Source of the DNA: Octopus vulgaris
Taxonomy: Eukaryota
Length of the DNA stretch: 64,000 nt
Assembly (NCBI GenBank): GCA_951406725.2
Contig: OX597831.1
Location: 33,232,001 to 33,296,000 of the forward strand
Direction of reading: 5' to 3'
Shown here piece by piece: positions 235-64,000 of this stretch (the first letter of the stretch is position 1; the number at the start of each line of letters is the position of its first letter). The notes beneath the pieces are model-generated. The model searched no databases. It was not told where the DNA came from and saw only the letters and a program-made list of their open reading frames with translations. The translations under genes were made by a program, and so were the position numbers.

Positions 235-3200
235 ATATGTTTCTTTATTGGCCACACTGGGCTGAACACAGTGGGGACAAAATACGAAGTAGAGCTTTTC
301 TTTTTAGGAAGAAGGAAAAAAGAAAAGGGGTATAATTTCGATCAAAAGGGATTGTGAAAACAAAAGGCCGATCAATAGGGATCGTGTATCACAGAAATGT
401 CACAATGCAAAAGGGGAAACAGATTAGGTTTATCTGTGGAAAGAAAAGCCTACGGAAAAGACCACGGTAACCTTGGGCAATAATGTCATGCAAAAAAACA
501 CATTACGGTAAGTGACTCTCTTTTTGCCTTTTTTTTTTTGGTTCATAGGATTATGCTCAAGGTGATTCCGTCATTCACACGTGCCATCCTTGCTACATTC
601 ACCCATCTGTTTTTGAAACATTCACTAGACAAAACTTCCCTCTCTACTCTCACCTTCCTCTTCAAGAAGTTGATGAGAGATTCACCAGAGAGGAAAGTGT
701 TTGTCTCTAGAACTTTCAGATGCGTCCACTATACACATTCTGTCGCCATAGCCACAAGTACGTTGAAAATGGCACTTCCTTCCTGTTTGAAGGAAGGAGG
801 CACGACAATATTCACGATAGACTCGGTTGACAAACCGACTCGTCCCACACGCGATAGCAGTCTTTCGACATAGGCCTACGGGTCGGAAATGGTTGGACAC
901 TGCATGAACGCGTGCAGAACGGTTTCGTCACTCTGACCGCATCACAGGCAAGTCGGCCCCGTGTTTCTTGAGCCATGCCTGTAGAGCTTATCTCGAACGG
1001 GTAGCGCTTCTCGATAGCACTGCCAGGCCAGGGATCTCTGGAAGTTGTCCATAGGTCCCGCCCTGAAAGTCATTTTGAACAGGCGTGTCAGGTATTCCTC
1101 GTCGACGTCCAGGTTCGCCCCAAGATCGTCGTCGTACCTTCCCTCCACTAATCCCCTATAGAATGCTTTGGTTGTGCTGAAGTCGCTCAAGGTCGACCCG
1201 GGACGGCATAGTTGCTCGAGAGCAACGCGACACCCGCGGTGCCATTCGCCCTTCCTCGGCCTCTTTTTGATCCACGACTGCAGTTCGGTCATGGAGACGA
1301 GCTGCAGTAAAGCGTGCCTCACAAACGGCGACAACACCTGTTCACCGTCGCCCACGTAGAGCCTGAGATGTCGAAGTCTCAGCGCGTGTCTGCGCATCAT
1401 CAACCACGACATGCCCAGCCCACCTTTTAACGGGTGTTGGCAGCAAACGGATGGCTTGACCATCGGAACGCATCTTTTCCACAAGAAGTGGAAGAGAATG
1501 CATTCCAGTTTGGTGATGGTAGGGTCAGGACAAGATACATCGGTCAGGCGGAAGTAGATGACGGACGCAATGTACATGTTCGCCACCTCCGCCCGACGTT
1601 TTAGGGACAGCTTCCTCTCGGCCCATAGCCGGGTGAGAGTGACCACCCTACTCGTATTCTCGTTCCAGTTCTCCGTTTTGAGGTTCGGAGCAAACCAGAC
1701 CACATGCAATTCGACCGGGCTGTCGGTTCAGCGTCCCACAACGGAGGCGCTGGTAGACGGCATGGATTTGCTTCGGAAAATGGGACCGAAACCAGCCGCT
1801 ATCAGCCTCCAAGTATCGAAAGCTTTGTATTGATCCAAATTGATCAGGATCCTACTCATGCCAGTTTCCTTAACTACCCTGTCTACGATGTAGCGCATCA
1901 GATGGAGGTTGTCATGGGTACTCCGACCCGGCACGGCGCACGTTTGCGCCTTTTCGACCGGTTTCTCGATGACAAGCCCTAGCCTCTTGGCTAACACCTT
2001 GGCCAAAATTTTCAAATCTGCATTGAGCAGAATGATGGGCCTAAAGTTATCTATTACGTCCCCCTTGTTTGGATCATTCTTCAGCAGCATTACGGCTCCT
2101 CATCTCATAAAACCAGGGATGCTTCCGTTTTGCTGCCAATTGCAGTACACTACTGCCAAGGCGTCTCCAAACAAGTCTGGCATACAACTGTAAAGCTCGT
2201 AGGGTAGACCATCCAAACCCGGTGATTTGTCCCTCGATCATTCTGCCATCGCGTCCCGCACTTCTACCGCCGTGATGGCACCTTCGCAGCACTCTGCTTC
2301 TCTTTTCGAGAATCGTGGCGGGCTGTGCAGGTAGGCACTGAAGTCCACCCTGCGTTCTCGCTCGCCACTTGTCCCGAACAGTCGGGCAAAATGCTGTTGA
2401 AAGGCCTCACACATTTTATTTGGCTCGAGTAATTTGCGCCCTTGTTCATCTACCAGAGACAGAATGGTGGCTTTGTTGCCCTGTTGCGACTCTGCCACAC
2501 CGGCCTCTCGCGCGGCTCCAACACCTTCGTTCCTTAGAGCACGCATCCTAGCCCTGACAACACATCCTTCGTGTTTGGCGTTGAAGTGTTGGTCGAGGGT
2601 CAACCTCGCCACCAAAACTCGGATACGATGCCACTTCTTATTGCCTCTTCTAGCGTCTTAACTCACTCACCCTCTACTCTGTCTCTATCTATGGCTAGTG
2701 CTTTGCTATACCTAATCGCTTCTGCTTTTATTGCACCCTTGAGGGCAAACTCCCATTTGTTGCTGATGATGGCTCCCGTCGAAGCCCTCTTTACTAGCGT
2801 GATAATCCGGTCTCTGAAAACCTGTCTCGGCGTGAAAGACGTATTTAGTTTCCAGTACCAGGGTCCCTGCCTATGTGCCTTATCTAATTCTTGCGTGCAC
2901 GTCACAATTTTGTGATCCGTGTGGCTGACTATGTGGAATTGTGGACACCCTACGCTATCTCTATCTACTATCCTACACAGTATCCTATCTAGATACGAAC
3001 TCGACGACCCGATGCGGTTGCTCCATATCCACGTAGGCGCATTCGGGTGGTCAGATAGTTGAAAGCAACTGAGCAGGTTTCTGAGGCATTTGCATCCCCG
3101 TGTATTCCTATTTCTGCCCACGTAATCTAGATGCGTGTCCAAGGTAGCATTCGAATCCCCACTAAAAGTAAAGGATGAGACGTTCCTAAGAATACTTCTA

Positions 3201-3265
3201 GACGTCGAAAGAAATCTGGCCGACCTGTTAAAGGCGGTGCATAGACTGATACGAGTCGAAAAGCG
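235..3265 (-). mobile_element. Decayed Tx1/L1-clade LINE: C-terminal half of APE endonuclease, internally deleted RT, zf-RVT/CCHC domain, 3'UTR
   Basis: ORF pieces: FSGDSNA..SYLDRIL..HTDHK..YWKLN (APE); NFRPIILLNADLKILAKVLAKRL..GRSTHDN..INLDQYKAFD (RT motifs 1-3; motifs 4-7 missing near 1768); HPLKGGLG; C-x2-C..ETVLH..C zinc knuckle; several frameshifts and stops. Confidence 0.9.
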
Positions 3266-3990
<725 letters not shown>

Positions 3991-4312: not shown

Positions 4313-5600
4313 TTCATTTCAGTCGCTTGTACTCGAACCGTTCACTTTCGATCATTACTTCACCTTCATGACCACAGACGTGGATAGGCACGGAAACCGA
4401 ATTGAAGACAGCTAGTTCGGCGTTTTTACCAGCCTCATCTCTTCTGAGGACGGAATGCCAGGGCAGGCTCTTAACTGTGCCAGCGCCTGCAATTCTGGCT
4501 TCCAATCCAGGCCCCTGCTTCCCATCACTCGTGAATGCGGTCCGGAGGTACGTAAACGTCTACAGTGGTCTCAGTGATTTTTTAATAACGTGCAGGGTGC
4601 ACTGGGAATATTTTTTCGAAAAGACCAATGTGTGTCTTCGTAACACTAATTTTCATCTCAGCCTTAAGGCCCTCGACAACAAACTCAGTACATGCTAGAG
4701 ATCATCTTCTGATGATCCAAGTGGCACCACGTCGCATTAAATACAAGCTGACCGATCCTACACTCACCGGTTGTGATTTCACTTCCACAACCGCTGCGCA
4801 TGTCAATCCAGTTCATAAAAATTATCAAAAGGATAGGTGACAATACACACCCCTGCCAATGTCAAAAACCAACCTTCAAAAGGTTTCGACTTAGCATCAT
4901 ATACCCTGACACAGACATCTAGGCATTCGTATAGGGACTTCACGGCAAAATGTTGTCCATTAATCTCAAACTCCTGCAAAATCTTCCACAGCATCTCCCA
5001 CAGTCATATGCTTTTCGAGGTCTACAAAGCAAGCGTACACCTCTTGACAGTATTCTCACAAGTTCTCGAAGATCTGCCGCTGAGTGAATATCTGGTTGGT
5101 TGAGCTGCGCCCGAAACGAAAGCCACACTGTTCTTCAGCTAGCTTGTGTTCAGCAATATACCTACATCTCTTTTAACAAACATCTAGCGTACTGGGGTGG
5201 GGGGAGGCTCTACAAAGACGTTCCTCTATAAATAAAGCACTCATTCTTATCTCCCTTTTCAAAAATTGGGATTATCGCCCCAGGTCGCCAATGCTTTGGT
5301 GTCTTTCTATAGATCTAAGACACCAGATTTAAAGCTGCTTTTAACATCTCAGGCCGCATTTCATCCTCTCCAGCGGCCGTACCATATTTGAGCGTTTTAA
5401 TCGCATCTATGACTTCAGCCTAGGTGAGATTAGCCTTCGCCCTTAGATGAACTTCGTGACAGCCGGAAGATTTTATTATGAGTGGATTTAGACCAGCAAA
5501 GAATGAAGAACATCAGCCGAGTTCTTAATAACTGGTGTTCTTAACAGTAGAGCTTCTTGTTATGGAGTTGGTGGACGACCTGCCTAACTAATTTCAGAGT
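4313..5600 (-). mobile_element. Decayed RTE-clade LINE, RT region
   Basis: Fragments AEVIDAIKTLKYGTAAGEDEMRPEMLKA, ..FVDLEK(A)YD..LWKILQEFEI..VKSLYECLDVCVRV..SKPF; many stops. Confidence 0.75.
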
Positions 5601-14933: not shown

Positions 14934-16159
14934 TGTTTCTTCCTTAGCCACACAGGGCAGCACACAGACGGGGCAGATTACAGAGTAGAGCTTTTCTTTT
15001 TGGGGGAAAAAAAGGTGGGGTAGGTATTCGATCAAAAGGGATCGTAAAAGGGAAAGAAGAAAAAAAAAAGAAAAAAAGGAAAAGAAACAAAAGAAAAAAA
15101 CGATCATTAGGGATCGTGTATCAAAGTGTCGTGATGTAAGGTGTAAAGGGGGAAGCAGATAAGGTTTATCCGTGGGAAGAAAAGCCTGCGGAAAAGACCA
15201 CGGTAACCTCGGTCAATATTGTTACATGTTACCACATTTGTTTGCAAGTAGGTAACCCTCCGTTTTAAATTTCCGGGTTCATAGGATTATGCTCAAAGTG
15301 GCTTCGTCTTTCATACGTGCCATCCTTGCTACATTCACCCATCTTTCTTTAAAACATTCGCTAAACAAAACTTGCCTCTCTACTCTCACTTTCCTTTTCA
15401 AGTGATACTTGAAGAAGTTGATGAGAGATTCACCAGAGAGGAAAGTGTTTGTCTCCAATCCTTTCAGACGTGTCCACCAGATACATTCTTTCGCCATAGC
15501 CACATGGATGATGAAAATAGCTCTTCCTTCCCGTTTGAAGGAAGGAGGCGTGACAATATTGACGATAGACTCAGCTGATAAACCGACTCGTCCCACACGT
15601 GATAGCAGTTGTTCGACATAAGCCCACAGGTCGGAAATTGTTGGACACTGCACGAGGGCGTGCAGAACGGTTTCCTCGCTCTGACCGCATCTCGGGCAGG
15701 TCGGCCCCGCGTTTCTCGAGCCGTGTCTGTTGAGCTTATCTCGAACGGGTAGCGCTTCTCGGTAGCACTGCCAGGCCAGTGATCTCTGGAAGTTGTCCAT
15801 GGGCCCTGGCCCGAAAGTCGTCCTGAACAGGTGGTTAAGGTATTCCTCGTCGACGTCCAGGTTCGCCCCGAGATCGTCGTCGTACCTCCCCTCCACTAAT
15901 CCCCTATAGAATGCTTTGGTTGTGTTGAAGTCACTCAAGGTCGACCCGGGACGGCATAGTTGCTTGAGAGCAACGCGACACTCGCGGTGTCATTCGCCCT
16001 TCCTCGGCCTCTTTTTAATCCGCGACTGCAGTTCGGTCATGGAGTCGAGTTGCGGGAAAGCGTGCCTCACAAACGGCGACCACACCTGTTCACCGTCGTC
16101 TACATAGAGCCTGAGATGTCGCAGTCTCAGCGCGTGTCTGCGCATCATAATACCACGGC
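14931..16159 (-). mobile_element. 5'-truncated Tx1/L1-clade LINE (ORF2 C-terminus plus 3'UTR) embedded in (GATA)n
   Basis: ORF 15279-15938 with CPRCGQSEETVLHALVQC; homologous to 235-1405; (GATA)n at 14838-14930 and 16160-16230. Confidence 0.92.
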
Positions 16160-19976: not shown

Positions 19977-20001
19977 ATATATAAATACGGCTGCACATTT
20001 A

Positions 20002-20213
20002 TTTTCAATCGCTGCAATTGTTTCTGCGCAACGTAGTTCTCCAGGTGTTCAGATACTTCATTATGGAACCATTCCCCGCATTATGAGATCTAGTTGTATT
20101 TCCTCAGGTGATATGTAAATATTGTTTCCGTAAGTTCAATTCCTCGGGTTCAAGAGCATCCTCTGTGTTGTGGCCGAGAATTTGAACTTACGGAGTCAAT
20201 ATTTAAATATCAC
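20002..20213. mobile_element. Partial copy of the palindromic hammerhead-bearing element
   Basis: Matches 32391-32606; hammerhead-like motif on the minus strand at 20008-20112. Confidence 0.8.
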
Positions 20214-20424: not shown

Positions 20425-20735
20425 ATTAATGATGGAGACGGAAGATAGAAGGTACGAGAATGTTTGTTGATCACTACAGTTGTTTCGACCCATCTAGCAT
20501 CGATCCCTCACCAGTGGGACACTGAACATCTGGCTTAGGTGTGTCCGTTGGTGTAGATGTTTCTCCTCGGGTGATTACAAGATGTACCCTGTTAAAATAA
20601 CGTCAGTTCCACAAGACTTCTTTTTAGTATGTGTTTATAAAAGCAGAAAATTAAGGGATACAGCTAGATGGGTCAAAACAATTGTAGTGATTAATAAACA
20701 TCCTCGTATCTTCCATCTTCCGTCATTAACCAAAT
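20421..20735 (-). mobile_element. Penelope-like remnant with inverted terminal segments and a hammerhead motif
   Basis: 20421-20498 and 20663-20735 are inverted repeats. Minus strand 20575-20470 reads ATCAC CCGAGGA GA..CATCTA...TAGATG..TC GAAAC AACT GTA GTGAT. Confidence 0.6.
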
Positions 20736-20838
20736 ACTCTCATTAACCAAATACCCAACGGACACTGAGAAAGTGAACGTGTTTTACGGGTAAACTACCA
20801 GGCGTATAACATATGATTAATTAACTAACGTGTGTGTG

Positions 20839-32197: not shown

Positions 32198-32395
32198 ATG
32201 TTAGTTATGGTATATTTTGTTTAAAACGTAGTAGAGTACAATATAAAGCTTTTCCACTTTCAGATTTCATCCTACACTATCAGGTAGTAGTATTATACGT
32301 TCTTGTAGGTATGCGTTTGGATTTCTGTCATGTGTGAATCGATAATTGAAAAATTTTTAGATTCAGCAAGGAGTACAGTTGGACATATACTTTCA

Positions 32396-32501
32396 ATCGC
32401 TACAATTGTTTCTACGCAACGTAGTTCTCCTGGCGTGTAGATACTTCACTATGTAATCATTTCCCTGCATTATGAGATCTTGTTGTGTTTCCTCAGGTGA
32501 T
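32396..32501 (-). ncRNA. Type-I hammerhead-like motif, opposite polarity
   Basis: ATCAC CTGAGGA [hairpin] GAAAC AATT GTA GCGAT. Confidence 0.55.
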
Positions 32502-32602
32502 ATGTAAATATTGTTTCCGTAAGTTCAAATTCTTGGCTTCAAGAGCATCCTCTCTGTCTGTCGTGGCCTGAAAGACAGAACTTACGGAAACAATATTTAG
32601 AT

Positions 32603-32708
32603 ATCGCCTGAGGAAACACAACTAGATCTCATAACGCAGGGAAACAATTGCATAATTAAGTACCTGCACGCATGGAGAACTATGTTGCGTGGAAACAATT
32701 GTAGTGAT
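32603..32708 (+). ncRNA. Type-I hammerhead-like motif with long stem II
   Basis: ATCGC CTGAGGA [77-nt imperfect hairpin] GAAAC AATT GTA GTGAT; the stem II closing pair is a mismatch. Confidence 0.6.
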
Positions 32709-32819
32709 CAAAAATTCTATGTCCAACCGTACACCTTGTTGATCTAGATTTTTTCAATTACATATAAGTGTGCGTGTGTGCAATGTGCGTGTGTGCAATG
32801 TGCGTGTATATGCATATAT

Positions 32820-52294: not shown

Positions 52295-53561
52295 CAACCA
52301 GCAGGTGTTTATACCATTTGTCAGTGGTTTTGATTTTATAATGCCGACATATTGTCCAGTGTAAATACTGGCCGACTTTGTCATATCTTGCTTTATATTC
52401 TACAGGTGCTAAGACGCTACACCCTGAGATTAGGCGGTCTATAGTTTCAATCTCATCGTTACAGAATCGGCATTTTTTATCACATTGGCTTGATAGTTCC
52501 GGGTTAATAAGCTTTGGTCTTGAGCAGCTAATTTGAAACCTTCACTCTCTGCTTTTAGCCCTGAGCTTCGTAGCCATTGATGCGTGTGTTTCTGGTCAAC
52601 ATCAGCTTGTTTGCTACGGACCACATACTTGCCATGCAGAGGAATCTGTTCCCATCTACTAGCTAATTTTTCATGCGCTTTTGTCTTTGCAATTAATTTT
52701 ATTTTCTTTGCAGCAGCAGTTGGCGCATTTCCTTCAACCTGATCAACCTGGTAGGTATCTAAGAGATCAGTAGCGAATTTTTGCTCTCTTTGAGAATAGA
52801 GTGAAGTTTTTTCGGTCTTTCATGTTTTTCAACAAGTTTTAGCATCCAATCGTTGGTTGCTTCAAGGTATTTGGCCAGTCCGATTGTGGTGGTTTTGTAT
52901 GTAAGTTCAAGCTGGATCAAGCCTCGACCTTCCTGAGCTCTGGGAAGGTAAAGACGATCCACGTCTGCCTTTGGATGGTGCATCTTATTACAAGTCAGTA
53001 GCTTGCGGATTTTTCTGTCAATTTTCATTATTTCACTGGTATTCCAGTTAAGCACATTGAAGCTATAAAGAACAACTGGTACTGCTAAGGAATTTATGGC
53101 TAAAACCTTATTATATGCATTCAGCTCAGACTTCAGGACTGCTCGAACTCTTCTATAACATTCTTTCCTAACCTTCTCTTTCATGCTTGCATGCTGGATA
53201 CCAGAGCCTTCATTTATTCCTAGGTATTTATAGGTTTGTTCCTGCTCAAGTTTCTTTATTACTATTTCGACATCTAATTCGATTGAACTAGACTTTACCA
53301 ATTTCCCTTTCTTAAAAGTGGCTTTGGCACACTTTTCAAGGCCAAACTCCATCCCGATATCATCACTGAATCCTTTCACAGTATGTAGTAATCCTTCAAG
53401 CTCTTCATCATCTTTGCCATATAGCTTTAAATCATCCATATAAAATAGCTGGCTTATTTTCCTGTTGTCAATTTTGTAGCCATATCCTGTTCTATTCAGT
53501 TCACTTGAGAGTGGTATTAGAGCTATGCAGAAATGAGAGTGGTATTAGTGCTATACAGAAA
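52295..53561 (-). mobile_element. Dong/R4-clade retrotransposon fragment (RT C-terminal half to zinc-finger region)
   Basis: SQLFYMDDLKLYG..DIGMEFGLEKCA..YKYLGI..RLYLPR..GRGL..WLRSSGLKAESEGF..AAQDQSLLTRNY; 5' end abuts (TAA)n. Confidence 0.92.
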
Positions 53562-62210: not shown

Positions 62211-62725
62211 CGTTATATGTGTATATATATATATACATATATATATAGGTAGGTAAGTAGGTAGGTATGTAGGGAGGTAGGTAGGTAGGTAGGTAGGTAG
62301 GTAGGTAGGTAGGTAGGTAGGTAGGTAGGTAGGTAGGTAGGTATAAAATATTTAACGTATGTGTATCGTGTAAAAAGCCAGAAGCTATAGTTTCCGATGT
62401 GACAAAAATCCCTTTATATCTGTATTGTATTAAAAACGCTCTCGCGCCGGAAGAGATAGTGAGAGTGACAGATGCACATTTCGCCGTTGATGCGGTTAAT
62501 CAGCATCACGGACTAACAGCGAAATGCATATATGTCATTCCCGCGGTCAATTCTGTAGCGATTTCATTTCGGCTACCAATGGAATATCTGTGTATGTATG
62601 TATGTATGTATGTATGTATGTATGTATGTATGTATGTATGTATGTATTACTCTACCTCCGGTATTCGAGTACTATATTTTTCTACCTTCTTTCACATATA
62701 TGTTATAATAATAGTAATAATAATC

Positions 62726-64000
<1,275 letters not shown>

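Follow-up and report, generated by a model that had tools for sequence, protein, structure and literature searches.

The palindromic stretch described here is very probably a decayed, 5'-truncated insertion of a Penelope-like element (PLE) that bears Hydra-clade motifs, made up of two head-to-head 3' pieces of its pseudo-LTR (pLTR), each with a predicted type I hammerhead; the 77-nt stem II of this motif was likely functional in the ancestral element when it was active. The insertion lies in the window, the 64,000-nucleotide stretch of Octopus vulgaris DNA that was analysed, and the family to which it belongs is called family A. Its parts are listed in Table 1.

Table 1. Family A features in the window (positions counted from the first letter of the window).
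Feature	Position	Strand	Remarks
Whole insertion: two head-to-head 3' pieces of family A (Hydra-clade Penelope-like element)	32200..32760	.	blastn of natural copy L029 on window
Tail, ~140 bp beyond end A	32200..32342	-	Present in other copies
pLTR 3' part up to end A	32343..32570	-	Positions 331-560 of the L029-based reference
Hammerhead layout, type I, minus	32396..32501	-	Core intact, A.A at 10.1-11.1, one stem I mismatch
Inversion junction, private to the window site	32571..32577	.	Gap of 8 between both matches in L001
Tailless, inverted, 5'-truncated copy that stops at end A	32578..32760	+	Reference positions 375-565
Hammerhead layout, type I, plus	32603..32708	+	Stem I, CUGAGGA, 77-nt domain II, GAAA, palindromic stem III
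Second family A fragment: one arm, upstream sequence and 39-nt inverted piece	19986..20211	-

The insertion sits in a (TA/TG)n tract, as read directly from its flanks, and its layout recurs at 20 of 73 family A sites. The inverted repeats (32343-32526 and 32576-32760) are 86% identical over 182 aligned bases, and the whole palindromic stretch folds in silico as a rod (-250 kcal/mol); in both respects the preliminary description of this locus was correct. It placed the start of the element at 32343, but family sequence goes on to about 32200. The left arm extends to that point (end B, the tail end), while the right arm stops at end A (the arm end). The left end of the insertion is therefore 140 bp outside the inverted arm, and the true ends are not inverted repeats. 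The stretch between the arms, formerly set apart as a spacer, is ordinary upstream pLTR sequence; the left pLTR part takes in the left arm and most of this spacer. Signs of a transposase were looked for at the ends, which carry no terminal inverted repeats, and no target-site duplication is visible at the insertion, where the flanks are microsatellite. The copy near 20 kb was previously taken as a second palindrome, but it has one arm (19986-20168) and only 39 inverted bases (20173-20211), with a junction unlike that of the window palindrome. Its cleavage triplet is GCA, as had been pointed out, so this copy is predicted to be inactive.

Microsatellites and broken retroelement ORFs are abundant in the window, and a whole-window repeat search was dominated by microsatellites. 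No host gene was seen by eye near the palindrome among the 87 stop-to-stop frames of the window. Broken pieces of non-LTR retrotransposon ORFs, RT-like or endonuclease-like by eye, occur at 942-3682, 15279-15989, 52439-53544, and 62333-63427. A 3' fragment of a sister family (family B) with the decayed second half of its hammerhead is on the plus strand at 20664-20736.

The type I hammerhead core (CUGANGA, GAAA, and UH) is present with stems I, II, and III on both arms. On the plus strand, C3 is at 32608, G12 is at 32692, and the GUA triplet ends at 32703, after which the cut is predicted; stem I is ATCGC/GTGAT, pair 10.1-11.1 is A.G, and domain II spans 32615-32691. On the minus strand, C3 is at 32496, G12 is at 32412, and GUA ends at 32401; pair 10.1-11.1 is A.A, stem I (ATCAC/GCGAT) has one mismatch, and domain II (32413-32489) is decayed. 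The proposal of a hammerhead on both strands is supported for both layouts and their positions, with the mismatch in minus-strand stem I as a reservation, and the reported purine mismatches at 10.1-11.1 are confirmed. The 77-nt stem II hairpin is supported in the plus arm, where 1 of 200 shuffles folded equally well (z -3.1), but not in the minus arm, where the fold is no better than chance (z -0.43; 61 of 200 shuffles). A loose type I descriptor had matches in 3 of 2000 dinucleotide shuffles of the arm. Rfam gave no match at the gathering score within the window. In E-value mode on eight loci, no hammerhead family was among the 150 of 197 weak matches listed, which were microsatellite-driven miRNA-type matches and other weak ones. 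RNA contigs (four runs, 85% likeness) mix family copies, with RNA ends and strand beyond their resolution, and no listed piece spans the palindrome.

Walking 5' from family A copies through (TG/TA)n tracts led to a GIY-YIG endonuclease (EN) and then to a reverse transcriptase (RT). The EN and the hammerhead arm are collinear at three loci (L097, L098, and L103), and at L120 an inverted full 3' UTR adjoins truncated RT-EN. Locus L296 carries a hammerhead-bearing pLTR, RT, EN, and a second pLTR in this order, with the pLTRs in direct orientation. It is a near full-length decayed element (L296:1067-1207 and 5011-5195), and its domain II looks intermediate between those of family A and a second sister family, family D. 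At L295 and L299, the order is an inverted piece, the pLTR end, the tail, and then the ORF start; the L295 tail stops about 80 nt upstream of the ORF start. From such pieces, the length of the family A element is estimated at about 3.5 kb.

The RT piece matches three proteins, one of which (P0002) is a 698-aa ORF (44%, E 3e-19), and the decayed family A ORF follows P0002 collinearly from its first residue as far as the EN. Pfam reported no PLE family in seven broken ORF fragments. The motifs RWK and DKT (in place of DKG) were read in L272, L267, L281, and also L280, and the CxCx5C linker was read in L092, L112, L115, and others; CxxC and CxH occur around a conserved E and N. RWK, DKT, and CxCx5C are Hydra-clade motifs (Craig et al., 2021, PMC8557442, section 11 and Fig. 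S2). Judged by its sequence, family A is a Penelope-like retrotransposon with Hydra-clade motifs. The Penelope connection raised earlier is upheld by the Penelope-type type I hammerhead, its palindromic stem III, and the continuation of the family into an ORF with RT and GIY-YIG. The accompanying idea of a new non-coding class, with the palindrome as its unit, is contradicted by a protein-coding parent, with pLTR, RT, EN, and pLTR in order at L296.

Two other PLE clades were considered and rejected. The Neptune-type EN has CxxC and CCHH motifs; the Neptune rows of Fig. S2 differ from family A, and the Hydra-1_Ajap row matches. Cephalopod Naiads are marked "HHR_half_core", but the EN of family A is C-terminal; by eye, one published octopus Naiad consensus has the core halves in another order at its 3' end. 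Elsewhere in the genome, 316 stop-free codons (L124:8551-9498) form the N-terminal part of another Hydra-type ORF with 39% identity to P0002. This ORF is far better preserved than that of family A, indicating that a younger family exists in the genome.

Orientation and ends of genomic copies are useful for separating a mobile palindrome from a retrotransposon insertion. With the palindrome as query, the 2.8-Gb genome gave 1527 candidates, 40 of which were scored, and most of these 40 match query positions 1-230 only (one arm plus the former spacer). In the copy flanks, the repeat extends 5', and some copies also extend about 140 bp 3', indicating two 3' ends, A and B. Loci L001-L164, a set biased toward palindromes, were reduced to 84 sites (53 with a single orientation, 20 inverted pairs, and 11 without a 3' end). 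Among the 73 sites with a 3' end, the 3' ends point outward in all 20 inverted pairs. The tail is on one side only in 17 of these pairs, absent in two, and on both sides in one, and the inverted junctions fall at different positions among sites. With non-palindromic queries, both orientations were present at 8 of 30 loci in family A, 4 of 30 in family B, and 8 of 30 in family D. With such a minority in family A and junctions that vary by site, the earlier suggestion that the palindrome is a family trait does not hold.

Private non-CpG variants are common to paired arms at a mean of 4.8 (10 pairs), compared to 1.13 in 2404 random pairs. This agrees with both arms having been copied in a single event from one template lineage, and gene conversion could also yield it. 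One pair (L011, G000:C3:89627112-89627514) has arms that are 97% identical, compared to 86-91% in other pairs, possibly reflecting gene conversion. TA repeats follow end A in 24 of 37 cases, which indicates (TA)n insertion. Family A copies are dispersed and break off at different 5' points of the parent, and the mapped sites include no arrays of a fixed short unit. Mean pairwise identity of their hammerhead regions is 82%, and every copy seen is broken. A single 5' end is present in three near-identical copies (L268, L269, and L272, C18:44.9-45.0 Mb) that lie no more than about 130 kb apart, likely a segmental duplication. In the family A 3' UTR (for example L060, L064, and L070), (TAA)n and (TG/TA)n tracts differ among copies, so family A spreads microsatellites.

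Sister families allow comparison of the hammerhead beyond family A. An EN protein search gave 14627 candidates, of which 150 were scored; 30 were taken as loci, and 40 more were added. Family B (L205-L234; 2201 search candidates) has about 51-53% EN amino acid identity to family A, and family D (L235-L264; 438 search candidates) has about 60%. Both keep the hammerhead at the 3' end and the G10.1-C11.1 pair. Domain II is 77 nt in families A and B and 93-94 nt in family D. Family B has a perfect 9-bp proximal stem and U4C, and its free positions N7 and H17 vary within the family. Family D domain II forms a long hairpin, and this family is the least decayed (89% pairwise), which makes it the best test case.

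The commonest letters of the three families agree at 24 of 29 positions of stem I, core, and stem III, compared to 11 of 50 flank and 9 of 42 inner positions in an ungapped comparison. When gaps are allowed, the flanks and interior of families A and B show about 60% likeness, versus 25 of 29 positions in the skeleton, so the ungapped 11 of 50 overstates the contrast. At the level of sequence comparison, the hammerhead skeleton is conserved in the three families. Across the three families, both bases differ in stem II pairs 3, 7, and 8, which gives only three independent two-sided changes. No domain II structure emerged when RNAalifold was run on all copies with its default settings. Domain II was recovered with relaxed settings from the 12 least-changed copies of each family, where 1, 3, and 0 of 200 column shuffles were equally good. 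In eight hand-picked sequences, the paired cells were equalled in 0 of 500 shuffles and the covariation score in 3 of 500, scores that relatedness inflates, while the count of two-sided pairs was matched in 377 of 500 and is not above shuffles. As to a coding constraint on the 77-nt length, the alignments by eye contain no open frame common to A and B.

Genomic copies were collected as proposed. The core is kept in 35 of 70 family A copies, 18 of 53 family B copies, and 23 of 34 family D copies, but family A core columns are barely more conserved than other columns (0.93 versus 0.91), so there is no sign of selection after insertion. Of 70 family A copies, 35 have A.A and 30 have A.G at pair 10.1-11.1, compared to G-C in families B and D, and stem II pair 4 is an A.C mismatch in 58 of 69. 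Family A otherwise retains all core letters, as well as stem I and the palindrome of stem III. A further family (L193 and L197) has, by eye, a degenerate hammerhead with a short stem II near its 3' end. Several other families of short type I hammerheads with palindromic stem III were seen next to these insertions, within their TA tracts (flanks of L008, L013, and L029; L014, L017, L031, L038, L147, L170, L185, and L191). These short hammerheads are probably ends of other PLE families.

Target-primed synthesis on both strands could account for the layout of the insertion. In vitro, two RT start sites of a PLE define the tail, and both strands are extended (Frangieh et al., PMC11167929). In family A, the RT/GIY-YIG protein may have nicked both strands of a (TA)n target and primed cDNA on each, one cDNA beginning at end A and the other about 140 nt further 3' at end B. 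Both cDNAs would have stopped early and been joined at their growing ends, which would leave 3' ends outward and the tail on one side only. The counts (20/20 outward and 17/20 with one tail) and the arm-shared variants fit this two-start-site, two-strand priming, which was described in another PLE clade (PMC11167929).

The ribozymes may have acted on tandem pLTR-ORF-pLTR transcripts, in which two motifs would pair through palindromic stem III. The predicted cleavage behind GUA, upstream of the ORF start by about 80 nt plus the tail, would trim RNA to unit length. The predicted form of domain II is a long, imperfect hairpin that stacks on the core, and the ancestor may have cleaved as a dimer. 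The two window copies would be neutral fossils and would mask each other in read-through RNA. A rod whose antisense arm masks the ribozyme had been proposed; the rod is an apparent insertion by-product, and no evidence of its transcription or selection was found.

Several other explanations of the palindrome were weighed. The preliminary description favored a non-coding palindromic element mobile as a unit, with a rod RNA carrying a ribozyme on each strand. This model draws on the very stable in silico fold and on seven distinct sites, including the window, with near-adjacent arms of similar size, but those sites came from the palindrome used as query. The junction differs per site, 53 of 73 sites have a single orientation, and 8 of 30 copies have both strands with an unbiased query; moreover, the palindrome does not include the tail, and family A possesses an ORF. 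The model is largely refuted and hardly credible. A DNA-transposon foldback MITE whose resemblance to a hammerhead arose by chance is next to impossible: it would explain long inverted arms and TA-rich flanks, but inverted repeats are absent from the true ends, the parent encodes a collinear RT-EN, and three families retain the motif, with a chance rate of 3 in 2000. Non-LTR retrozymes, short tandem non-autonomous units, have a proposed descent from pLTRs (bioRxiv 10.64898/2026.07.22.740005). Derivation of such a unit from a PLE pLTR would suit the type I hammerhead and the lack of ORF sequence in most copies, but dispersed copies with variable 5' stops along the parent, and no fixed-short-unit arrays among mapped sites, make it very unlikely.

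Whether the family A hammerhead was functional is a separate question within the PLE explanation. U.U is the best tolerated mismatch at 10.1-11.1 (PMC3088659); family A has A.A or A.G there, so it may have been a weak or dead ribozyme during its spread. A doubtful but distinct possibility is that its hammerhead was already an inactive relic and only the sister families were active. The purine mismatch seen in 65 of 70 copies points this way, as does A.C in stem II, and the Anolis element did not need ribozyme cleavage for insertion in vitro, so cleavage was dispensable in another PLE (PMC11167929). However, the rest of the core is kept, along with stem I and the palindrome of stem III, and many Hydra hammerheads have U.U or another non-G-C pair at this position (PMC8557442 File S2). 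Conversely, the motif could be an active Hydra-PLE hammerhead variant in which a structured domain II of 77-94 nt was under selection for its own job, such as binding of the protein encoded by the element or compensation for the absent loop I contact. This reading is tentative and rather unlikely. If it is true, such motifs escape Rfam and short-spacer descriptors, and some PLE families recorded without a hammerhead may have one.

Comparison of the insertion in the window with known PLEs separates the expected from the unusual. Craig et al. (2021; PMC8557442) described an inverted 5'-truncated PLE copy with a one-sided tail, as well as direct and inverted pLTRs, and File S2 of that paper lists Penelope-13_HM, in which an inverted 5'-truncated copy places a hammerhead on both strands. 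In Schistosoma, motif pairs on opposite strands are 100-700 bp apart (Cervera and de la Pena, 2014; PMC4209133). A palindrome with the motif on both strands is what PLE insertion is expected to yield, and it matters little.

The Hydra clade, which includes Penelope-13_HM and Hydra-1_Obim from Octopus bimaculoides (PMC8557442), shares with family A the motifs RWK, DKT, and CxCx5C, a C-terminal GIY-YIG EN, (TA)n targets, and a hammerhead near the 3' end with palindromic stem III. Differences are in size: Hydra elements are mostly <3 kb versus about 3.5 kb as pieced together for family A, and the tail is usually 30-40 bp (PMC8557442) versus about 140 bp. The family A hammerhead is unlike that of Hydra-1_Obim, and domain II of 77-94 nt contrasts with all 26 rows of File S2 (stems of 3-7 bp and loops of 3-10 nt). 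Domain II is about 25 nt or less in those Hydra rows, and the stem II arm here is 3-4 times longer. Selaginella PLE-X1 also has an enlarged domain II, at about 45-55 nt the largest in File S2, but it is marked there as deviating from the canonical form and belongs to another lineage, endonuclease-less plant elements.

Minimal hammerheads in metazoan PLEs are also type I, with a stem I of 4-5 bp and a palindromic stem III suited to dimers, but their helix II has 6-8 bp with G10.1-C11.1 (Cervera and de la Pena, 2014), compared to about 20-30 predicted pairs in the families described here, and family A differs from them in being without G10.1-C11.1. Non-LTR retrozymes have the type I hammerhead and a PLE relationship in common with family A, but they are tandem non-coding units (bioRxiv 10.64898/2026.07.22.740005), and the window insertion is a truncated piece of a coding element. 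In the open-access literature, no report was found of families A, B, or D or of a 77-94-nt PLE domain II. What is apparently new is the length of domain II as read in family A and its two sister families. Three families with a natural hammerhead of such long domain II extend the range known for PLE ribozymes and reveal a gap in what current hammerhead descriptors detect, and families A, B, and D offer a ready series with and without G10.1-C11.1.
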